Shown piece by piece: positions 9,514 to 62,043 of a stretch of 64,000 bases of DNA. The position numbers and the translations under genes are program-made. The stretch spans positions 9,936-73,935 of the forward strand of contig JBKHFO010000001.1 of NCBI GenBank assembly GCA_046540175.1. Reading direction: 5' to 3'. The notes under the pieces are model-generated. The model had not been told where the DNA came from. It did not search any database and was given only the letters and a program-made list of their open reading frames with translations. The first letter of the stretch is position 1, and every line of letters starts with the position of its first letter. This DNA comes from Candidatus Hydrogenedentota bacterium. GTDB lineage: Bacteria; Hydrogenedentota; Hydrogenedentia; Hydrogenedentales; SLHB01.

Positions 9514-9781
9514 CTCACGCCACGGCGCTACGTTTCCCCAATCGCTGGACAAGGCGGCATGCCGGTTGTTTACATCCCCCTTGATCCCCCCCTTCCAAGG
9601 GTGAACCATAGCGCCGCCCTCCAGGCGGCTTATGTGCCGGCAAGATGCCGGCGGTACGAATTATTTCCCCTTTGAAGGGGGTGGCCCGAAAGGGGCGGGG
9701 GATGTTCTTCTGCTTACGCCTCACGCCACGGCGCTACGTTTGATTGAGTTCTCGTGGCGTCGTAGCGCCGTGGCGTGAGGC
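9514..9781. repeat. Composite repeat. The 21-mer CTCACGCCACGGCGCTACGTT occurs three times (9514-9535 direct, 9719-9738 direct, 9761-9780 inverted), enclosing a GC-hairpin repeat copy (9536-9716). The 21-bp perfect palindrome 9718-9781 is terminator-like.
   Basis: Direct reading. The 9621-9709 core is about 85% identical to 61802-61883. The palindrome is CCTCACGCCACGGCGCTACG-22nt-CGTAGCGCCGTGGCGTGAGG. Confidence 0.6.
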
Positions 9782-18162: not shown

Positions 18163-18720
18163 GCGTGTCTTGGCGGGTGAGCGGCGGCCATGTGCGCTTC
18201 CGCTCGCACGCCGCCCGGGGCCGGGCTTGGGGGCATGTGGTACACTGGGAGTTCGTGGGAAGATGAATCTTTTGTCCGAGTTGCGGGCATACATCCAAAA
18301 GACCCCAGCGGGGTCATGGATGGTAGCCAGGGGTTGAGCCCGCGAGCGCAAGCGAGTAGGGCGACACCCCTGGATCGAGGGTCCCCCACAAAGACGGACC
18401 CCGGCAGGGGTCCCAGACTCCAGGCTTCCGCGGCCCCTGCCGGGGTCGATTTGGGGTCGTCTTCGATTCCAGGGGTATTGCGTGCTGACGCACGCTGCAA
18501 CCCCTGGCTATCATCTGTCATCCCTGCCGGGATGGATTTATTTGTGACAGCATTTCAGAATCGGAACGAACACACATTCGGCGCTGACCACGCCCACATT
18601 GCGTTCCCCAATGGGCGAGTAGGTTTCCATCGCCGCCGGGGAATTTCCCGGCGGTTTCTAACGTTTCCACGGCATGGTGTTGTACGGTTTATTGGATCAG
18701 TTAAGGCCCGAGGAGGGGTT

Positions 18721-28517: not shown

Positions 28518-28607
28518 AAACGAAGTGGGGACGGCGCCAGTGATCTTGAGCGCGAAAGCGGTGGGGAACCCCATGGGACGGCGAGCGCATTGCGCGGCTT
28601 ATCGCCT

Positions 28608-28763
28608 ACTTACCTGATGGGCGGTAATCGGGGCACTTGGTTGCGTTGGGGCGTTCGGGCCGCTTGCAGACGTTGCCATGGTCATACTTACAGTTGTCGC
28701 ACAGAAATTCGGTGGGACAAGTCTTCTGCCACCACCATTGGCGGAGTTTGTCGAGGGTGGTCA
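28608..28763 (-). CDS. Small Cys-rich protein (51 aa), putative zinc-ribbon-like
   Basis: Minus-strand ORF MTTLDKLRQWWWQKTCPTEFLCDNCKYDHGNVCKRPERPNATKCPDYRPSGK. GGAGG sits 6 nt upstream of the ATG. It is below the ORF-track length cutoff. Confidence 0.45.
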
Positions 28764-28830
28764 TGGGGCGCCTCCATTGGGTTAAGCGTTGTGCCCGTAG
28801 AATAGCAGGCGGGCGAAGGCAAATCCCAGG

Positions 28831-30165
28831 TTATGATTCGGAACGGCGTCGGCGCAGGCGGTATTCCTGTGGCGACACGCCCTCGAATTTACGGAACAGC
28901 CGGCCCAAATTGCTGGGATCGTTCACACCCACTCGCTTGGCCACCTCGTTCACCGGGAGTTTCGTGCGCCGCAGGAGTTCCTTCGCCCGCTGCACCCGCA
29001 AGCGTCCGACATATTGGCTAAATGAGAGCCCGAACTTTCGCTGAAGGCGGTGGGTGATGGCGGTGGGATTCTGGCCGATGGCCCGCGCCGCCTCGTCCAG
29101 CGTGACGCCCTCGGCCAGCCGGGGCGTCACATAATCGTGTAGCGCCTTGTACGTGGGGTCCTTGTCCGCCCCTCGCGTGGCGCGTTTCTTGGGGGGGCGC
29201 AACGCCTTGAAGAATTCCATGAGGCTGTCGACGAGCGCGGCGTCGTTCCGGGATGCCCGAATGGCTTCATAACACGCCGTCAAGCGATCCCAACCCCGTT
29301 CCACATCGAAGCCGGCCCGGCTGGCGCCCTCGAGCAGTTCCCCGGCCAAACTCAGCGCCCGGCCCCGCCGCACTGGCAGGCGAACTTTCTTGCCTCCCTC
29401 CGTTTCCGTGATGGCGTCGTGAAAGAGCGCGCGCGCTTGCTTCGTGTCCCCCGCCGCCAGCGCCAACGCCAAGGGGCCGCCTTCGCGGATGACGTCCGTC
29501 ATGGAACGGGTTTGGCGCGAGGGGGGCGCGGTGTCCGGGGCCGTGCGCCCGGGTTCATGGGCCTCGGTTTCAGCCGTTTCTTGCGCCTTGTGTTCGCGCC
29601 ACAGCGCTTGGAAGGAGGCCGTGGCCCAGTCCGCCAGCGCCGCCATGGCCCCAGCCGGGGCCGTGCGCACGTCATCCAGCGAAAAAGGCAGCCGGGGCTC
29701 GGCGCTTCCCGTGAAGTTGGCCAACCGTTTACGCACGTCCGCTTCCAGTCCTTCAGGCGCTTCAGCGGGACAGTAGGGACCCAAGGTGAGGACCACGTTG
29801 GGCGCGGCTTCCGGCAAGACGGGCGCGGACAGACACGCAAACCCCATGTGACACTGAAAAGGGATCGAGCGCTTGCGCCGGGAGGCGGCGAGGCTGGCGG
29901 GCAGACGCGACCCCCTACAGGCCGCTCCTCCGCCGGCCATCGCCGTCACATGGCGGCAGGCAGCGCAGCCGGGTTCCCGCGTGGCCAGCGCGTGCTCTTC
30001 CTCTTCTGTCACGTAGTGAATGCTCAGCGGCATGGCCGCCGCTTGGCGCATCCGTTCGATCCACCGCGCCGTCTCGTCCGACTGCAAAAAGGTCATTATC
30101 TCTTCCGCCAGCGCGGATCCCGAACGATCAATGTCATTGGAGCGCGAGTTCATGCCGAATGCCAC
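28831..30165 (-). CDS. AraC-family transcriptional regulator with N-terminal Cys-containing (PocR-like) sensory domain
   Basis: C-terminal AraC HTH pair (LDEAARAIGQNPTAITHRLQRKFGLSFSQYVGRLRVQRAKELL...VNEVAKRVGVNDPSNLGRLFRKFEGVSPQEYR). The N-terminus has IHYVTEEEE...CAACRH...FQCHMGFACL. Confidence 0.8.
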   Translation of the reverse strand: MAFGMNSRSNDIDRSGSALAEEIMTFLQSDETARWIERMRQAAAMPLSIHYVTEEEEHALATREPGCAACRHVTAMAGGGAACRGSRLPASLAASRRKRSIPFQCHMGFACLSAPVLPEAAPNVVLTLGPYCPAEAPEGLEADVRKRLANFTGSAEPRLPFSLDDVRTAPAGAMAALADWATASFQALWREHKAQETAETEAHEPGRTAPDTAPPSRQTRSMTDVIREGGPLALALAAGDTKQARALFHDAITETEGGKKVRLPVRRGRALSLAGELLEGASRAGFDVERGWDRLTACYEAIRASRNDAALVDSLMEFFKALRPPKKRATRGADKDPTYKALHDYVTPRLAEGVTLDEAARAIGQNPTAITHRLQRKFGLSFSQYVGRLRVQRAKELLRRTKLPVNEVAKRVGVNDPSNLGRLFRKFEGVSPQEYRLRRRRSES

Positions 30166-30198
30166 GTGCCGTTTCGCCTTTCACACAGTTTCCGATGA

Positions 30199-30330
30199 GC
30201 GACTTACAGAAGTCAAGAGGAGGTCCGCCTTCTTGCCGTAACCGATCACAATATCGAGTATTTCAAGCACCGTCCAGTAATTCTCCGCAAGATTTATCCG
30301 CGGCCAAGGGACTTCTGCAAGCCGCTGCGA
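30199..30330. repeat. MITE-like 130-bp element with imperfect terminal inverted repeats, copy 1
   Basis: About 85% identical to the reverse complement of 41575-41706. Ends are GCGACTTACAGAAGTC ... GACTTCTGCAAGCCGC. Confidence 0.55.
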
Positions 30331-30390
30331 TGTCACTTTTTTAAGGAGGAGCCTATGCGCTATACTTGCAGGCCTTGATTGGGGAGCACG

Positions 30391-31296
30391 ATGAAGCTAA
30401 CGCCAAACCAAGAGCGGCGCATAACCAAGTACTTACAGGACGTTCACGCCCAAACCGAAGGGCTCTCCGACGCCCAACGGCGCCGGGCGCTCGCCCATGT
30501 GAAGGCGCAGTTGCGCGAACGGCTCCAACAGTATACAGATGCCGCTCCCGAGGATACCGAACTTGAGGCGATTCTAAACAACTGCGCGCTGCCCGGCTTT
30601 GTCTCTTCCGCTGCTAACCAGGAGGCGCGGGAGGTGGGGGATGTGGAGGCATTGGAGCCCAGCGCCTCTCCGCAAGACACTTCCCCGCCGCAAAATGAAC
30701 CCCGAGCGGCGCGCGGCGATTTCCTCGAACTCGAGGGCCGCGTTTGGCTTGGCGTTTGCTCGGGGCTTGCCCGCTACCTCCGGATAGAATCCGCCATTGT
30801 CCGCATCATCGCCGCCGTCGTGGGCGTGGCGACCTTGGGATTCCTCCTTTGGGTTTACGTGGGATTATACCTGTTCTTCTATCTGCGCGACCGCTCCGGG
30901 GTGTTGCCGCCCCTTGATGTGCTTCCTGTCGTGCGGCGCATGGCGGGAATGCTGGCGTTAGGGATTGTCATGTTCGCCGTTGGTGAAATGGCGCTGTGGG
31001 CGATGGGCGCGGTCGCGGGGCTGGCCGCCGGGCATGGAATCACTGTTGACGCCGCCTGGGGCTGGTTTGCCGAGCGAAATGGGACCATCGTGTTTTGGAC
31101 CCTTGTATTCGCCCTTCCCTTGGGGGCCATGAGCGCCATGCCCGTCGCCGAAGGCTGGGACTACACGCTTAGGAAACTAGCCCAAGCCTGTCTGGCCGTG
31201 TACGCGCTGCTCCTCACGTTTGGTCTGGCGTGCCATTTCGTGGGACTGCTGCTGGAAGCTACCGGCGCCGGGACGGGCGTCACCACCGGGGAATAG
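30391..31296 (+). CDS. PspC-domain membrane protein
   Basis: RVWLGVCSGLARYLRIESAIVRI (PspC motif) followed by several TM helices. ATG at 30391 with GGGGAG upstream. The ORF-track start at 30379 is a TTG. Confidence 0.75.
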   Translation: MKLTPNQERRITKYLQDVHAQTEGLSDAQRRRALAHVKAQLRERLQQYTDAAPEDTELEAILNNCALPGFVSSAANQEAREVGDVEALEPSASPQDTSPPQNEPRAARGDFLELEGRVWLGVCSGLARYLRIESAIVRIIAAVVGVATLGFLLWVYVGLYLFFYLRDRSGVLPPLDVLPVVRRMAGMLALGIVMFAVGEMALWAMGAVAGLAAGHGITVDAAWGWFAERNGTIVFWTLVFALPLGAMSAMPVAEGWDYTLRKLAQACLAVYALLLTFGLACHFVGLLLEATGAGTGVTTGE

Positions 31297-32456: not shown

Positions 32457-33155
32457 GTGATGACGCCCCAAGCCTTTATCGAGGAAACCCGCGGCTCGGG
32501 AACCCGCCGGGAAACCCTGGCGGTCACCGAGATTTACAAGAGCATCCAGGGCGAGTCTACTTGGGCGGGCTTGCCCTGTATCTTCGTGCGGCTCACCGGC
32601 TGCCATCTCCGGTGCGTGTGGTGCGACACCACGTACGCATTCCAGGGCGGCGTTCAGACGGACGTACAAGATATTCTGACGCGCTGCCGGGAACTCGGGG
32701 GGAACCTCGTCGAAATTACGGGAGGCGAACCCCTGCTTCAGAAGAATTGCGGCGCGTTGGCGCGGCGGTTGCACGCCGAGGGTTACACCGTCTTGTGCGA
32801 AACCAGCGGGACGCTTCCCATCTCCATGCTTCCGGAAGAAACAATCAAGATCATGGATTTGAAGTGCCCCGGCAGCGGCGAGCACGGCCGGAATGACTGG
32901 TCCAACATTAACCGGCTCTCGGCGCGGGACGAGGTGAAGTTCGTCCTCGCTGATCGCGCCGACTACGAATGGAGCCGGGATGTGACCCGCGAATATGGGC
33001 TTGCTTCTCGGACGCGTGCGGTGCTGTTTTCCCCGGTGTGGGACAGGCTGGAGCCCAAACAACTCGCGGAGTGGATCCTGGAAGATGGGCTTGAGGTCCG
33101 GCTGCACATACCATTGCACAAAGTAGTGTGGTCCCCGGATACAAAGGGAGTGTAG
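32457..33155 (+). CDS. queE: 7-carboxy-7-deazaguanine synthase (radical SAM)
   Basis: IYKSIQGES, CHLRCVWCDT (CxxxCxxC) and the overall QueE length. Confidence 0.85.
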   Translation: MMTPQAFIEETRGSGTRRETLAVTEIYKSIQGESTWAGLPCIFVRLTGCHLRCVWCDTTYAFQGGVQTDVQDILTRCRELGGNLVEITGGEPLLQKNCGALARRLHAEGYTVLCETSGTLPISMLPEETIKIMDLKCPGSGEHGRNDWSNINRLSARDEVKFVLADRADYEWSRDVTREYGLASRTRAVLFSPVWDRLEPKQLAEWILEDGLEVRLHIPLHKVVWSPDTKGV

Positions 33156-40527: not shown

Positions 40528-41568
40528 ATGACCTCTACTGCGGATTCCCTATTTACCCGAGCCTTGCACGGCCAACGCACGGCGCGTCCTCCCGTTTGGT
40601 TCATGCGCCAAGCGGGGCGAACCGACCCCGAGTATAACCGGTTGAAGGCCGAAAGTGGTATGAGGCTCGATTCGCTTTTCCGTCATCCCGAGATGGCGGC
40701 GCGCATTTCTCTGCTTCCCCGCCGCTTGGGTGTGGACGCCATCATCATGTTTCAGGACATCTTGACCCCTTTAACCCCCATGGGCGCGCCCTTTCGTTTT
40801 GCGCCCGGGCCGGTGTTGGACAAGCCTCCGCGTTCGGCCGCCGAGTTGGCCGCGTTGCACACGTACGACGTGATGGAGGAGCTGCCGTTTATTCCGCGCG
40901 CCATCGAATTGCTGCGGGAAGAACTCGAAGGCGCCTTGCCGGTGCTCGGGTTTGCTGGCGCCCCGTTTACCCTGGCGGCGTTTCTTGCGGAGGGCAAGAG
41001 TTTCAAGGCCGAGGCCCCGGCCCTGCGGGCGCTCATGGAAGAGAATCCCCAAGCGCTTCACCGGCTGCTGGACAAGCTTACCACCTTGACCACGCATTAT
41101 TTGGAGCTTCAGCGGCAGGCCGGGGTGGCGGCGCTGCAACTTTTTGAATCGGCTGCATTGCTGCTGAACCGCCGCGAGTATTGGGAATTCGCCTTACCCT
41201 ACCAGCGCCGTATTTTAGACGCTTTCAGCGGCCGTGTTCCAACGATTATCTTTGCCCGGGACTGGCCCTACCTCGCGGACTACGCGGAGGCGGGCGCGGA
41301 TGTGGTGAGCTTGCCCAGTTCGATTGACCTGGGGGAAGCCCGCGCGGCCTTGGGCCCCGGGTGCGTGCTGCAAGGCAATCTCGACAACCAATTGGTGGCG
41401 GAGGGTCCCCCAGCGCGCATCCGGCAAGCCGTGCGAGAATGCGTGGCGGCGGGTGAGCGCGAGGGGCACATCGTGAACTTGAATCACGGGTTGTTGCGGG
41501 ATACCCCATTTGAACACATCCAAACCGTCGTGGAGGAAGTCCACGCCGCGGCGGCGGGAATGGAGTGA
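40528..41568 (+). CDS. hemE: Uroporphyrinogen decarboxylase
   Basis: PPVWFMRQAGR N-terminal signature and URO-D length (346 aa). Confidence 0.9.
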   Translation: MTSTADSLFTRALHGQRTARPPVWFMRQAGRTDPEYNRLKAESGMRLDSLFRHPEMAARISLLPRRLGVDAIIMFQDILTPLTPMGAPFRFAPGPVLDKPPRSAAELAALHTYDVMEELPFIPRAIELLREELEGALPVLGFAGAPFTLAAFLAEGKSFKAEAPALRALMEENPQALHRLLDKLTTLTTHYLELQRQAGVAALQLFESAALLLNRREYWEFALPYQRRILDAFSGRVPTIIFARDWPYLADYAEAGADVVSLPSSIDLGEARAALGPGCVLQGNLDNQLVAEGPPARIRQAVRECVAAGEREGHIVNLNHGLLRDTPFEHIQTVVEEVHAAAAGME

Positions 41569-41574
41569 ACCTCA

Positions 41575-41706
41575 GCGACTTACGGAAGTCCCTTGGTCGA
41601 GGATGAATCTTGCTGAGAATTACTGGACAGTGCTCGAATTACTCGATATTGTAATCGCTTAAGGCAAGAAGGCGGACCTCTTCTCGACGTCTGCAAGCCG
41701 CTCAAC
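41575..41706. repeat. MITE-like 130-bp element, copy 2 (inverted relative to copy 1)
   Basis: Starts 7 nt after the hemE stop. Reverse complement is about 85% identical to 30199-30330. Confidence 0.55.
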
Positions 41707-41870
41707 CCGTATTGCAAGAAAGATGACGCGAATGCGACGGGCGGGCTAAAGGGCCATGGATGTGTTAAAATGGGGTAAGCGTTCCGGGAGGAATGGGTTG
41801 CAGCGGGTGGAGGCGGCATGGCAGTATACGGGCGCCGTTTAGTCCGGGACGGCGGGGGTAAGGGAAACAG

Positions 41871-41900
41871 TTGACACATTACCGCTTAGATTGTTACACT
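41871..41900 (+). promoter_or_regulatory. Sigma70-like promoter of clpX
   Basis: TTGACA (41871-41876), 18-nt spacer, TACACT. It lies 35 nt before the clpX ATG. Confidence 0.4.
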
Positions 41901-41934
41901 AGGTGCTTTTGGAACCGTTAAAAGGGAGGTTTGT

Positions 41935-43221
41935 ATGGCTTCTCACCGCACGCGCGGAGATGTCCCCACTTGCTCGTTTTGTGGCAAGCGCCACGATGAA
42001 GTCAATAAACTCATCGCCGGGCCGGACGTCAACATTTGCGACGAATGTGTGAGCCTCTGCGGCGAGATTGTCGCCGAGGATCGCGCCCGCAAAGGCGCGA
42101 AGCATGACATGAAGGTTCCCCGGCCCTACGAGATCAAGGAATTCCTTGATGACTATGTCGTTGGCCAAGAGAGAGCCAAACGGGTTCTGTCCGTGGGCGT
42201 GCATAACCACTACAAGCGCATTTCCGCCGGTGGTGAGATCGAAGGCGTGGAGCTGCAGAAGTCCAACGTGTTGCTTGTCGGCCCGACGGGATGCGGCAAG
42301 ACGTTGATGGCTCAGTGCCTGGCCAAACTCCTGGATGTGCCTTTTGCCGTTGTCGACGCCACCACGCTGACCGAGGCCGGTTACGTGGGAGATGATGTGG
42401 AGAATGTCATCCTGAAGCTGCTTCAGGCTTCCGACCATGACGCCAGCCGGGCCGAGATGGGCATCGTGTACATTGACGAGATCGACAAGGTCGCCCGTAA
42501 AGGCGACAGCCCCTCCATCACGCGTGACGTGTCGGGCGAGGGCGTGCAGCAGGCCCTGCTGAAACTTCTGGAAGGCACCGTGGCCAGTGTTCCCCCTCAG
42601 GGCGGCCGCAAGCATCCTCAACAAGAATGCGTCCAGGTCGACACCAAGGATATTCTGTTCATTTGCGGCGGCGCGTTCAACGGTCTTGAGCGCATCGTTG
42701 AGCAACGCACGCGGAAGACGGTGATCGGGTTCAATGCGGATGTGCAGTCCCGCCATTATCGGAACATTGGCCAACTCCTCGAATTGGTGGAGCCGGAAGA
42801 CCTCATAAAATACGGGATGATTCCCGAGTTCTCTGGCCGTCTTCCCGTGGTGGCCACCCTGCATGAGTTGGGCAAGGACGAATTGGTCCGTATTCTCACG
42901 GAGCCCAAGAACGCCCTTCTCCGGCAATTCGAGAAGCTGTTCGCCATCGAGAACGTGAAGCTTTCGTTCAAGGACGAGGCCATTGAAGCCATAGCCGAAC
43001 TCGCCATTGATAAAGACACGGGCGCCCGGGGGCTGCGGGCGATCATGGAGCAGTTCATGCTCAATATCATGTACGACATTCCCGCGCGCCATGATGTGCG
43101 GGAGTGTATCATTACCGAGGGCGTCATTCGGGAGAATGAAGATCCGATTCTGGTCTACGAGCACGAGTACGAACAGGCCCAGGACTCCAACGAGAGTACG
43201 AACAAGACGGCCTCCGCTTAA
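41935..43221 (+). CDS. clpX: ATP-dependent Clp protease ATP-binding subunit ClpX
   Basis: CSFCGK...CDEC zinc-binding N-domain, GPTGCGKT Walker A, and the IGF-loop region. Confidence 0.95.
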
Positions 43222-48209: not shown

Positions 48210-48560
48210 AGTGTTGCTCCTTTCGTTTCCACCGCCGATGGGCGGTGCATGGCTTGGTGGAGGCGCATCCATACGCGCTCCATTTCCTCGCTTGATGGTG
48301 CCTTGCGTCCTTCGCAAAACACATGGAACGAATCTAGCACCTGGCGCGCATCCATTACGATCCGCGCCATGGCGATATCGCACCTCAACCCTGTCAAGGC
48401 TTGGGATGCGTGATACCTTAGCCCCGCTCGATCCCCGCTTTCGATATCAATGAATGTGCGGGACCGCGACTTGTTGTTAGCAAATTGGATGCGAGTTCGC
48501 ATGGGGACCCTGAGTTGCCGGAGGGCGAACAACCGCCGCCTCACCTGTTCGATGTAGGGC
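48206..48560 (-). pseudogene. Diverged duplicate of the glnD 3' end (C-terminal ACT domain fragment)
   Basis: KPYIEQVRRRLFALRQLRVPMRTRIQFANNKSRSRTFIDIESGDRAGLRYH...HRPSAVETKGATL is about 75% identical to the last roughly 118 aa of the full glnD (49637-49990). No N-terminal domains. Its stop overlaps the htrA ATG (ATGA). Confidence 0.6.
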
Positions 48561-49637: not shown

Positions 49638-52348
49638 TATTGCAGACTCCCTTTCGTTGTTTCCACCGCCGACGGGCGGTGAATGGCGTGGTGGAGTCGC
49701 GTCCGCATGCGCTCCATTTCTTCACTTGATGTCACTTTGCGTCCTTCGCAAGTCACATAGAACGAATCCCGGACCCGCCGCGCGTCCGTCACGATCCGGG
49801 CTGTGGCTATATCGCATCCCAACCCCGTCAAGGTGTGGGCTACGTCATACAGTAGCCCGGTTCGATCCCCGCTTTCGATATCAATGACTGTGTGGGTCCG
49901 CGAACTGTAATTGTCGAACTCGATTTGGGTGCGTACGGGGATGCGGGGTTGCAGCAGGGCGAACAACCGCCGGCGCGCCTGTTCAACATAGGGCTTCACA
50001 TCCGCGCCTTCAACCAGCACAGCCCGCAAGACCCGTTCAAGGCCGGCCAACTCGGTCTGGGTTAACCGCCGTCCTCCGGAGGGCTCTCCCACGGTGAAGC
50101 AGTCAATCACGTATCCGTCGGGCCGGGTAAAAAGGGCGGCGCTGTTAACATCCATGAGCTGTGAAGTGAAACTGCCCGCCAACTTGGCGAAAAGGCCGAT
50201 TTGGTCGCGCGTGCTTATGGTGATCTCGCTCATGACCGTATCATCTATTGGAGCCGTATGGAGGACGAAACCCGCTTCTTTGGCGCGCGCAATCAGCTCA
50301 AGATGGTGCGCCATCTGTTCGCTTGAAAAGGCTGCATAGTACCGTTCTCCCATGTCCCGGATGTGGGCTTCAACCTCGCTGCGAAGATCCTCGCGCGCGC
50401 GTTCCTGGACCATCTGCGCCTTAGGGGAGTTCCAGAACGCTTCGTCCGGCGATACCGTGCGGCCAAGCAAGTGCTTCTCGGCCTTCAGATACAGCTTCAT
50501 GAGCAAGGCGCCTTTCCAGTCGTTCCAGACATTGGGGCCAACGGCGGACATGTCCGCGTAAGAAAGCAGGAACAAGGACCGGAGGCGCTGTTCAGTCCGC
50601 ATCGTTTCCGCAAAGGACCGGACAATGTCCTCGTCATCAATGTCCCGGTACTGGCTGATGAAGGTCATTTGCATGTGATGCTCGACGAGAAAGGCGATCC
50701 GTTCCACATCGTCGGCGGAAAGCCCCATACGGTAGGCTATGCGCCGGGCAAGGCGGGTGCTTTCTTGAACATGAACCTCTCCCTTGGCCTTGCCCAAATC
50801 GTGAAATAGAATGGCCATCACGAGAATATGGGGATCCGACAAATGCTCAAGGGCAGTGCGTAAGCAACGCGAGACGGTGTCGTCGCGTTCGTGAAGGGCC
50901 GAAAGCGCCTCCAAAGCCCGCAGCGTATGTTCATCCACGGGATAAGCATGAAAATCCTCGTAGCAAATTATGCCCTCAATCGCCCCAAATTCTGGAATAT
51001 ACCGGCCCAGCAGGCCCGTTTGCGCCATTTGCCGTAGCGTGCTTCCCGCTGTGGTTGGATGATTGCATAGGGCGGTGAAAAGGCGCCGCACGACATCGCT
51101 CGAACGGAATGTATCGCCCACGAGCCCCAGGTTGCGCCTGATGCGGCGTTCCGTTTCGTAGCTCAGGGGGACTCCTTGGCTGGCGCTCTTCCAGAAGACC
51201 TCCATGAGCCGCGCCGGCGCTTGGGCGAACCAATGGGGATCGTGAAGTCCCGCATGAAGTTCCCCGCCGCTGATCGTTACCTCATCGGCGGAACCGGCGT
51301 GCGTCTCCGCGGTAGGCGATAGGGAGGGCTGACAGTTCCACAATCCCGCGGCGCGCCGAAGCAGGTTGCGCATCGTTCTCGCGGCTGCGTAGTAGTCCTC
51401 CATGAGGCGCGCGATATTAGGGCGCTCCCCCGCCGTATATTCAAAGGCTTGCGCTAGCCGGTGCTGATTCGAGAAAGTTAACCGATCCTCGTCTTTGCCG
51501 GTTACGAAATGCAACTCGTTGCGCAGGCGCAGTAGGAAATCAAGCGCCTCGACGACTTCGAGGTGGGTTTCGGGGGAGAGAAGACCTGTGCTGGCGACCT
51601 CGTCGAGCGTCTTTGTACCGTAGGCTGTCATGGGAAGCCACAGGGCGCTGTGATAGTCGCGGAGCCCTCCGGCGTTCTGCTTGATATCGGGGGAAAGCGC
51701 GTACAGATCGCCATATTTTGCGGGCAATTCCCCGAAACGTTCGCGCACAATTTCTTCGATGTAGCGATGGGCGACGCCCTTTACCTGTAAATCTCGCACG
51801 CACAGTTTCAGCCGTGCGAATACTGTTGTGTCGCCCGCCAAGAGCCGGGCCTGAGAAAAGCTGGTGAACACTTCCTTGTCGTCATTCGCCAACTCTTGGG
51901 TTTCCGCGATGGTGCGGATGGCGTATCCCACATGAAAGCCCAGGTCCCACAAAAACGCGACCAGATAGCTGTTGAGGGTCTCGATAGCGGGGCTCAGCTT
52001 GCCATCGTGGATCAAGGCCACATCGAGGTCCGAGTAGGGACTCAGTTCGGCGCGGCCATACCCGCCGACCGCACACAAAGCCACACGGCTTTCAACTTGT
52101 GCTGTATCATGAGCGGCCGCCAGCCCGAACCGGTAGACGCCCTGAAGCACCGTGTCCGCCATGTCCGACAAGGCCCGCACGACATTGCCGCCCGACTCGC
52201 CGGCTTCATGCCGACTGCGAATCGCCTTGCGGCGGGCTTCCGTATAGGCGCGAGCCGCCTCCAGGCACTCGTTCCGGGACATCGCACGGAACGCCTGGGG
52301 ATCGCTGCTGGCCAGCGTCACGAGTTCTTCGAAGGCGGGCATGGTCAT
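49637..52348 (-). CDS. glnD: [Protein-PII] uridylyltransferase/uridylyl-removing enzyme
   Basis: Nucleotidyltransferase GGYGRAELSPYSDLDV, HD domain HDLGK, two C-terminal ACT domains. Start trimmed to MTMPAFEEL. Confidence 0.9.
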   Translation of the reverse strand: MTMPAFEELVTLASSDPQAFRAMSRNECLEAARAYTEARRKAIRSRHEAGESGGNVVRALSDMADTVLQGVYRFGLAAAHDTAQVESRVALCAVGGYGRAELSPYSDLDVALIHDGKLSPAIETLNSYLVAFLWDLGFHVGYAIRTIAETQELANDDKEVFTSFSQARLLAGDTTVFARLKLCVRDLQVKGVAHRYIEEIVRERFGELPAKYGDLYALSPDIKQNAGGLRDYHSALWLPMTAYGTKTLDEVASTGLLSPETHLEVVEALDFLLRLRNELHFVTGKDEDRLTFSNQHRLAQAFEYTAGERPNIARLMEDYYAAARTMRNLLRRAAGLWNCQPSLSPTAETHAGSADEVTISGGELHAGLHDPHWFAQAPARLMEVFWKSASQGVPLSYETERRIRRNLGLVGDTFRSSDVVRRLFTALCNHPTTAGSTLRQMAQTGLLGRYIPEFGAIEGIICYEDFHAYPVDEHTLRALEALSALHERDDTVSRCLRTALEHLSDPHILVMAILFHDLGKAKGEVHVQESTRLARRIAYRMGLSADDVERIAFLVEHHMQMTFISQYRDIDDEDIVRSFAETMRTEQRLRSLFLLSYADMSAVGPNVWNDWKGALLMKLYLKAEKHLLGRTVSPDEAFWNSPKAQMVQERAREDLRSEVEAHIRDMGERYYAAFSSEQMAHHLELIARAKEAGFVLHTAPIDDTVMSEITISTRDQIGLFAKLAGSFTSQLMDVNSAALFTRPDGYVIDCFTVGEPSGGRRLTQTELAGLERVLRAVLVEGADVKPYVEQARRRLFALLQPRIPVRTQIEFDNYSSRTHTVIDIESGDRTGLLYDVAHTLTGLGCDIATARIVTDARRVRDSFYVTCEGRKVTSSEEMERMRTRLHHAIHRPSAVETTKGSLQ

Positions 52349-54982: not shown

Positions 54983-55879
54983 CTACCACCATTGCGCCCG
55001 TATGCGGGGCCCATCGTGCTCCCGGAGCATCTCCCGCTGTTCCCGGTTGTCCTCTTCCTCCAGGGCCTCGAGAATGGCTTCAAGCGTCTGAGGGTTTTCC
55101 GGGGTCTCGGGGGACTCTGTCTCTTCGGGGTTCGGTTGAGGCCCGGCGGGCGCCTCGCGCTCCTCAGGGTCCTGCTCCTGTTCGCCATCGCCGGCTTCCG
55201 GCTGTTCTTCTCCCTCTCCCTCTTCCTCTCCCTCTTCCTCTTTCTCTCCTTCTTCTCCCTCGTCGCCGCTGTTTTCAGGCTCGGGCTCTTCTCCCTCTTC
55301 CTGGGGTTCCTCGTCTTCGGACTCGTCCTCGTCCGGTTCCTCTTGAGGGGGATTCTCCAATAAGGTCTTCCGCAAATAGCGCATGTGATCGAGATTGTGC
55401 TGGGCGGCCTTGTGATCCGGGTATTGGGCTAGGAACTCCTCGTAGCTGCTTATGCTATCCTCGACGGCCTCCAAGGCTTCCTCGTACGGCCTGGCGCGCG
55501 CGATTGCCCGGGCCTGCCGGCCCTCGGTGTTGGCCCGGTTGTACGCCGCATCCCGCCTTAACTCGATGTCTGCGTCCTCCGGAAGACTGTCGAAGATTTC
55601 CTGGGCGGCCTCAAAGTGCTCGAACGCCTCGTCCAGGTCTCCGGCTTCCAAGGCCTCCTTGCCAAGCGAAACTTTCGCAGATCCCATATTATACCGCAAC
55701 ACGCCGGAGGAAGGCGCTTCAATCTGAAGCAACTGGTACAGCTCCAATGCGGCTTGGGCCTCGCCTTGCTCGAGAAGCTCGTTGCCGCGTTCGACCTGCT
55801 CGCGCAACGAACTCGCCCCCCCGGCGGCATGCATGCCGCCAAGTACGATTACAATTATGAGACACGTTAGCCTATGCAT
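54983..55879 (-). CDS. batC: BatC-like TPR protein with acidic Glu-rich C-terminus
   Basis: Signal MHRLTCLIIVIVLGGMHAAGG. TPR repeats. EEPDEDESEDEEPQEEGEEPE tail. Confidence 0.7.
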   Translation of the reverse strand: MHRLTCLIIVIVLGGMHAAGGASSLREQVERGNELLEQGEAQAALELYQLLQIEAPSSGVLRYNMGSAKVSLGKEALEAGDLDEAFEHFEAAQEIFDSLPEDADIELRRDAAYNRANTEGRQARAIARARPYEEALEAVEDSISSYEEFLAQYPDHKAAQHNLDHMRYLRKTLLENPPQEEPDEDESEDEEPQEEGEEPEPENSGDEGEEGEKEEEGEEEGEGEEQPEAGDGEQEQDPEEREAPAGPQPNPEETESPETPENPQTLEAILEALEEEDNREQREMLREHDGPRIRAQWW

Positions 55880-61689: not shown

Positions 61690-61883
61690 CGGCCGGACCG
61701 CCGGCATCTTGCCGGCTTTCAGATACAATTCCCCCTTCGAAGGGGAATTATAAGGGAAGGTCCCCCTTGCTCCCCCGAAGGGGGAAGCGTATCGCCGTCT
61801 TCCAGGCCGCCTATGTGGCGGCACGATGCCGGCGGTCCGAACAATTCCCCCTTTGAGGGGTGGCCCGCAGGGCCGGGGGATGT
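61690..61883. repeat. GC-hairpin repeat family, long copy B
   Basis: 61802-61883 is about 85% identical to 9621-9709. Contains CCCCCTTCGAAGGGG, CCCCCGAAGGGGG and CCCCCTTTGAGGGG hairpins. Confidence 0.55.
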
Positions 61884-62043
61884 ACACAACCTGCACGCCA
61901 ATCTATCCGGCCATCCGGGAACCCGGCTGTCCATTGTAAACTGGGCGGGGAGCGTGGTACTATCTTATTAACCCGTGCGGAGGCGGGATACGGCTTGTTG
62001 CCCCGAACCATGTAGGGAAGGCAAGCCCGCCGCTCCATCAAGA

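Follow-up and report, generated by a model that had tools for sequence, protein, structure and literature searches.

A probable new family of MITE-like elements inserted between genes in Candidatus Hydrogenedentota

Two copies of a short non-coding repeat lie in opposite orientation in the 64,000-nt stretch of Candidatus Hydrogenedentota DNA analysed here (the window). The first, copy A, is located between two divergent genes, one encoding an AraC-type HTH protein (28831-30165, - strand) and the other a PspC-domain protein (30379/30391-31296, + strand); 43 nt separate it from the ATG of the araC-like gene (30153, - strand) and 63 nt from that of the pspC-like gene (30391, + strand). The second, copy B, is found between hemE (URO-D; 40528-41568, + strand) and clpX (41935-43221, + strand), and 231 nt lie between its end and the ATG of clpX. 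A promoter-like site that would belong to clpX itself (TTGACA-18-TACACT at 41871-41900) is downstream of copy B and is conserved in the relatives. An earlier note on this DNA, made by reading the letters, had placed the two copies in these settings, and Pfam confirmed all four genes; the distance of 7 nt that it gave between the hemE stop and copy B has to be corrected, as the copy starts 4 nt past the stop.

A repeat search of the window returned inverted arms at 30196-30327 and 41573-41704 (132 nt, 86% complementary). These limits were refined with the help of a third copy, presented below, to 131 nt for each window copy. The alignment gave 86.3% identity in opposite orientation, in agreement with the two inverted copies of about 130 bp and about 85% identity described before, and the significance of the match, which the earlier note wanted checked, is high (nhmmer E-values of ~1e-48). 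Outside these limits, identity drops to background at once, both in MAFFT alignments and in an ungapped comparison. The GC content of the element is 46-52%, versus 61% in the window, and neither a third nor a degenerate copy was found in the 64 kb. The features of both copies are the following.

30197..30327, + strand: copy A, 131 nt, reading GAGCG...CGCTG on the + strand
30193..30196: left target-site duplication (TSD) of copy A, CGAT
30198..30214, + strand: left terminal inverted repeat (TIR) of copy A, AGCGACTTACAGAAGTC
30243..30256: small internal palindrome of copy A, CGAT-N6-ATCG
30310..30326, - strand: right TIR of copy A, reverse complement AGCGGCTTGCAGAAGTC
30328..30331: right TSD of copy A, CGAT, directly after the element
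41573..41703, - strand: copy B, 131 nt, standard orientation on the - strand
41568..41571: left TSD of copy B, AACC, its first base being the last base of the hemE TGA
41574..41590, + strand: TIR of copy B on the hemE side, AGCGACTTACGGAAGTC
41624..41652, + strand: weak sigma-70-like site in copy B, TGGACA-17-TATTGT, 9/12, a consensus match only
41686..41702, - strand: TIR of copy B on the clpX side, reverse complement AGCGGCTTGCAGACGTC
41704..41707: right TSD of copy B, AACC

Comparison sequences were obtained by exact-protein look-ups. They include a same-species assembly (GCA_046539725.1, 99.45% identical over 7.3 kb; contigs L121 and L152 of the same-species MAG), a sister species (GCA_046497285.1, ~88-92% DNA identity; contigs L139 and L151), a more distant lineage at ~80-87% DNA identity (GCA_007118235.1, others and several ENA contigs; among them L140, L141 and L143) and a further set of remoter relatives with different synteny. 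A profile search with copies A and B revealed copy C in the sister species, in the clpX-lon spacer (L151:3533-3664, 132 nt), with 77.3% identity to A and 78.8% to B. All three can be aligned over their full length, GAGCG to CGCTG, and there is no relationship between their flanks.

The TIR is an imperfect 17-nt repeat, AGCGRCTTRCRGAAGTC, which fits both ends of both window copies with 0-1 mismatch, 0.83 occurrences being expected in the window at up to 3 mismatches. The arms can pair at 15/17 positions in copy A, 13/17 in copy B and 16/17 in copy C, so that the pairable ends reported before are present in every copy. The ends of the element can be written as GAGCGRCTTRCAGAAGTC ... GACTTCYGYAAGYCGCTG, and an invariant core of 18 nt is GAGGTCCGCCTTCTTGCC.

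With the two window copies no more than 11.4 kb apart, a recombination relic or a local segmental duplication was considered. The remains of a protein-coding gene were considered as well, since open reading frames cross both copies on either strand and, in one frame, roughly half of the differences between A and B are synonymous. However, the similarity stops abruptly at the TIRs, the flanks are unrelated and the third copy is elsewhere in another species, which effectively excludes the local duplication that the earlier note had named as a refutation. The longest frames are shorter than 50 codons and are broken in copy C, and no homolog of any of the three open frames appeared among 5.8 billion protein clusters. 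An origin of any of these kinds is scarcely credible, and the statement that the element encodes no transposase stands, since it is without coding capacity. It was also considered whether A and B derive from different source copies; no such claim is made, as their divergence (13.7%) is not clearly above that of intergenic DNA between the species (12.2%).

The clearest evidence of mobility comes from the hemE-clpX spacer. In the same-species MAG (L121) the whole spacer is identical to that of the window, copy B included, which is 100% identical and keeps its orientation. The sister species (L151) lacks copy B, and its spacer measures 232 nt versus 366 nt in the window. When all possible excisions were tried, the best alignment to the sister was obtained by removing exactly 136 nt from the window, that is 131 + 5 or 1 + 131 + 4, with an excision point that slides across the duplicated AACC. 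The flanks of the empty site align between both species at ~88-92%. The sister reads ...GGAGTGAACC followed by GATATT..., and the window reads ...GGAGTGAACC-T-[CAGCG...CGCTC]-AACC-CGTATT.... AACC is single in the empty site of the sister, which confirms its duplication at copy B. Copy B is also missing in the lineage at ~80-87% identity, in whose spacer only the clpX promoter and leader are alignable. Copy B is thus an insertion with an alignable empty site in the sister species.

Concerning copy A, the araC-pspC spacer, from ATG to ATG, measures 237 nt in the window, 66 nt in L139 of the sister and 103 nt in each of L140, L141 and L143 from the distant lineage. Without the element, the window spacer would be 102 nt, in agreement with the 103 nt of the distant lineage. 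Copy A is missing in the orthologous spacers of these four contigs; the contig of the same-species MAG stops short of araC, and no record of the exact AraC protein turned up. Like copy B, copy A is an insertion, with the reservation that the sister differs from the window by 171 nt at this point and so carries an element-free allele, not a clean empty site. The sister spacer (L139:9656-9721) is also without ~36 nt beside the copy A site (window 30154-30192), a deletion bounded by the near-repeat GTGACAT/GTGGCAT; slippage could have caused it independently, or the element may have been lost imprecisely.

Regarding copy C, no copy was found in the clpX-lon spacer of the window, of the same-species contig L121 or of L129, and the window spacer is not alignable around the site. 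Since copies A and B are absent from the sister and copy C is absent from the window, presence and absence are reciprocal. Copy C is surrounded by ~250 nt of very AT-rich DNA (L151:3480-3830), which has no alignable counterpart in the window. This DNA is possibly another insertion, and it suggests AT-rich DNA as a landing site.

All three copies are flanked by short direct repeats. Those of copy A are CGAT, and those of copy C are a perfect TATAA/TATAA. At copy B, an extra T (41572) lies between the left AACC and the element, so the duplication may be AACC plus a stray base or 5 nt with one mismatch (AACCT/AACCC). Among random 131-nt intervals of the window, a 4-nt direct repeat is found at the boundaries by chance in 0.7% of cases, or in 1.2% if an offset of 1 nt is allowed. 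Direct repeats of 4-5 nt at 3/3 copies are therefore not due to chance, and the search for TSDs that the earlier note had recommended was positive at every known copy.

These duplications also bear on the possibility that the element is a REPIN-like or IS200/IS605-type palindrome, with a tyrosine (HUH/RAYT) transposase, not a DDE enzyme, moving it in single-stranded form. In essence, the element is a single long hairpin, similar to a REPIN in size, and several other short palindromic repeat families are found nearby in the phylum. Nevertheless, REPIN and IS200/IS605-type elements are not known to duplicate their target and insert beside a fixed short target sequence, while all three copies of this element have duplications of 4-5 nt, each of them different. 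Moreover, its 17-nt arms enclose a unique interior of ~95 nt, which is not the arrangement of two REP hairpins. Mobilisation of this kind is consequently judged very unlikely.

A second possibility, already mentioned in the earlier note, is that the repeat is a structured RNA or a terminator or regulatory module selected by the host and by chance present in duplicate, for example a hairpin in the hemE 3'-UTR or a leader of the araC-like gene. The position of copy B, directly past a stop codon, would be in accordance with this. When the folding was checked, one of the four strand and copy combinations was unusually stable: the minus strand of copy A, which is the sense strand for the araC-like gene, folds at -50.7 kcal/mol (z = -3.2). 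The other three were unremarkable, with z between -0.4 and -1.1, and no helix apart from the terminal repeat is solid. Copy C keeps the internal palindrome by a change on both sides (CGGT...ACCG), so the pairing of this 4-bp hairpin survives a double change; this is a single pair, too little to count, and is not significant on its own. The covariation terms given by alifold were unfavourable (+1.67 and +0.24, from three sequences). Neither copy had a match in Rfam 15, by gathering score or at E<=1, and no terminator-like site was detected in 30050-30500 or 41450-42000, nor a T-run after the stem. In addition, the orientation relative to the neighbouring genes is inconsistent across the three copies, and neither the sister nor the more distant relatives carry the element at these sites. 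Such a module is, in the light of these data, a very improbable explanation.

The interior also contains the weak sigma-70-like site of copy B. Its counterpart in copy A (30248-30276, - strand; TGGACG-17-TATTGT) is below the threshold of the scan, and in copy C the site is degenerate. It would point to the araC-like gene in A, to clpX in B and back to the 3' end of clpX in C. As the direction differs across the three copies and the site is degenerate in one of them, no consistent functional arrangement can be recognised. A mobile regulatory cassette like the Correia elements, with an outward promoter and/or an RNase-sensitive hairpin and with an interior that may flip, is considered unlikely. 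If it were true, insertions of the araC-pspC type would rewire the regulation of the stress response in an uncultured phylum.

Positions 5 and 9 of the TIR deserve a separate description. They are variable (A/G) and remain unpaired (G-T or A-C) in both window copies, at 30202, 30206, 30318 and 30322 in copy A and at 41578, 41582, 41694 and 41698 in copy B. Their arrangement is the same on the + strand at both loci although the interiors are inverted; in copy C these positions are A-T and G-C. They may be hypermutable, or they may be the trace of a past inversion.

The latter could indicate an inverton, in which a site-specific recombinase flips the ~95-nt interior, possibly carrying a promoter, between the 17-nt repeats. 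The same left-arm and right-arm variants are found on the + strand in both window copies (1+1 mismatches), and the A and B interiors align only when one of them is inverted (12/95 mismatches versus 76/95 in direct comparison). The weak promoter-like site is in the interior, and inversion has been reported for Correia elements (PMC10969869). Against this, a third combination (A,G on both arms) is found in copy C, and the variable purine positions are taken to be simply hypervariable. The unpaired terminal bases (G...G) follow the orientation of the interior in all three copies, and copy B has the same orientation in both assemblies compared (n=2). Furthermore, the arm pattern would arise by chance in ~4-6% of cases according to a simple hypergeometric estimate, which is not compelling, and an inverton is highly improbable.

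The density known so far is 2 copies per 64 kb in one species and 1 per ~24 kb in the sister. A scan of a genome collection with the core GAGGTCCGCCTTCTTGCC gave at least 119 loci; this is a GC-rich 18-mer, and the matches listed were all chance ones in high-GC genomes, as seen by blastn with the full element. A metagenome scan with CCAGTAATTCTCNGCAAGATT gave 6 loci and 0 true copies. The element had 0 matches in viral contigs and none in 72,556 plasmids, and no further copy was present in the ~2.3 kb of extra same-species sequence beyond the window edge. Likewise, neither the window nor ~168 kb of the relatives' contigs contains an ORF surrounded by a matching pair of TIRs. The element showed no sequence similarity to anything searched, and no paper linking MITEs with Hydrogenedentes was found in the literature. 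On the other hand, a short-read contig carrying hemE (L001, Logan SRR19844287) ends 42 nt into copy B (window 41614). Assemblers behave in this way at repeats, so this stop is a weak and indirect support for repetition. With k = 31, it would fit another sequence of the sample sharing the element from about position 12 onward, which hints at closer copies elsewhere in the genome.

In behaviour, the element is comparable with elements of the Correia, ERIC or RUP type and with the Tn3-derived TIMEs. Members of the Tn3 family produce 5-nt target duplications and have ends of ~38 nt that begin with GGGG. The TATAA and AACCT/AACCC duplications would be compatible with the 5 nt of this family, but copy A has 4 nt, and the ends of the element are 17-18 nt long and begin with GAGCG. 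The Tn3-derived TIMEs (PMC4133298) are similar to it in being non-autonomous miniatures mobilised in trans, a dependence that is presumed for the element. The Correia elements of Neisseria (CREE/NEMIS) are also small, non-coding, provided with TIRs and TSDs and mostly intergenic, near gene starts or ends, and like the element they can fold into a long hairpin in transcripts. They have a TA duplication and repeats of ~26 nt, whereas the element has varied TSDs of 4-5 nt and 17-nt repeats, no sequence similarity to them and a host from another phylum. Correia elements present sigma-70-like promoters, an IHF site and terminal repeats cleaved by RNase III, and are sometimes inverted (PMC10969869), while the element has just the weak promoter-like site.

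ERIC/IRU from enterobacteria and RUP from Streptococcus pneumoniae resemble the element as imperfect palindromes of ~107-127 nt, intergenic and often in transcribed regions. ERIC copies at gene 3' ends can alter mRNA stability (PMC10969869), and the position of copy B is reminiscent of them. Neither ERIC nor RUP has sequence similarity to the element, their hosts are different, and recent mobility is doubtful for ERIC, whereas the presence of the element differs between sister species. The RAYT-mobilised REP/REPIN sequences are likewise short, hairpin-forming and intergenic. REPINs are not known to leave a target duplication, in contrast to the element, which has one at 3/3 copies.

Altogether, the repeat is very probably a previously undescribed MITE family inserted between genes in Candidatus Hydrogenedentota. 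Prokaryotic MITEs are recognised by a size of 50-800 bp, TIRs of at least 10-15 bp, TSDs of 2-10 bp and the absence of a transposase (PMC11602168). The copies described here are 131, 131 and 132 nt long, with a 17-nt TIR in each, TSDs of CGAT, AACC and TATAA, no coding frame that is long or conserved, and occupied versus empty orthologous sites, clean at copy B. Several dispersed copies per genome and a cognate autonomous IS with the same TIRs also belong to the picture of a prokaryotic MITE; the copies known here are two in the window and one in the sister. The data show that different intergenic sites are occupied in two sister species and that each insertion duplicated a target of 4-5 nt. 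The non-autonomous, MITE-like nature suggested in the earlier note is thus supported by the empty site, the TSDs, the third locus and the absence of coding capacity, and its other suggestion, a structured RNA or terminator, is disfavoured by the Rfam, terminator and covariation results together with the orthologous sites of the relatives. What is new is the family; the kind of element is ordinary and well known, and it does not call for a new mechanism.

As for its movement, a transposase whose gene is at another place in the genome would act on the element in trans, recognising the TIRs and making cuts staggered by 4-5 nt. Repair of the gaps would then leave the duplication, following the classical DDE-type scheme of cut-and-paste or copy-and-paste. 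The effects on the neighbouring genes would be incidental: copy A may split the short divergent control region between araC and pspC (~102 nt), and transcripts that read through from hemE may gain, with copy B, a long sequence at their 3' end that can form a hairpin.

Besides this element, two or more short repeat families that are present in some genomes and absent from others were observed in this clade, so miniature mobile or recombinogenic repeats appear to be common in it. The second family (window 9590-9705 and 61778-61888; L140:11534-11653) is ~85-115 nt long and 82-86% identical, with palindromic ends of the CCCCTT/AAGGGG type; the window copies are direct and 52 kb apart, and the other one belongs to a different lineage. 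The same-species MAG (L152, 99.4-99.8% identical) is without window 61739-61844. The direct repeat ACAATT(C/A)CCCCTT borders this indel, which could reflect a collapse in the assembly or an insertion/deletion polymorphism within the species. The third repeat, of ~270 nt (window 18283-18558; L139:6578-7016; L140:4907-5172), is rich in nested inverted repeats and matches the relatives in both orientations. A related segment of ~440 nt lies between queD and queE of the sister, where the window is uninterrupted (33153-33155). These features suggest another mobile or recombinogenic palindromic element.

Other features of the window were also recorded. Between a T2SS-type ATPase gene and the araC-like gene there is an ORF for a Cys-rich protein of 52 aa (28606-28764, - strand; MTTLDKLRQWWWQKTCPTEFLCDNCKYDHGNVCKRPERPNATKCPDYRPSGK), which has no Pfam hit on record. 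The identical protein is present on at least 12 contigs, including lineages whose DNA identity is no more than ~80-87%, so that a genuine small protein under strong constraint is probable. A 300-nt direct repeat (48225-48524 and 49659-49958; 78% identical, 1434 nt apart) is probably a pair of paralogous coding segments; in the relatives, the gene of a trypsin/PDZ (HtrA-like) protease and the gene beside it occupy this region. Finally, 55185-55327 is a CT-rich, low-complexity stretch of TCC/CTC/TTC units with overlapping 41-nt repeats, which presumably encodes an acidic or glycine-rich low-complexity segment on one strand.

The family is a record of DNA transposition that was active recently in Candidatus Hydrogenedentota, and almost all that is known of this phylum comes from metagenome-assembled genomes. 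Its defined ends, size and duplication length can be used to find the parent transposase, and the element may explain breaks of MAG contigs in this clade. It could also serve as a strain or species marker. Moreover, the insertion in the 102-nt araC-pspC control region is a natural experiment on the regulation of those genes.
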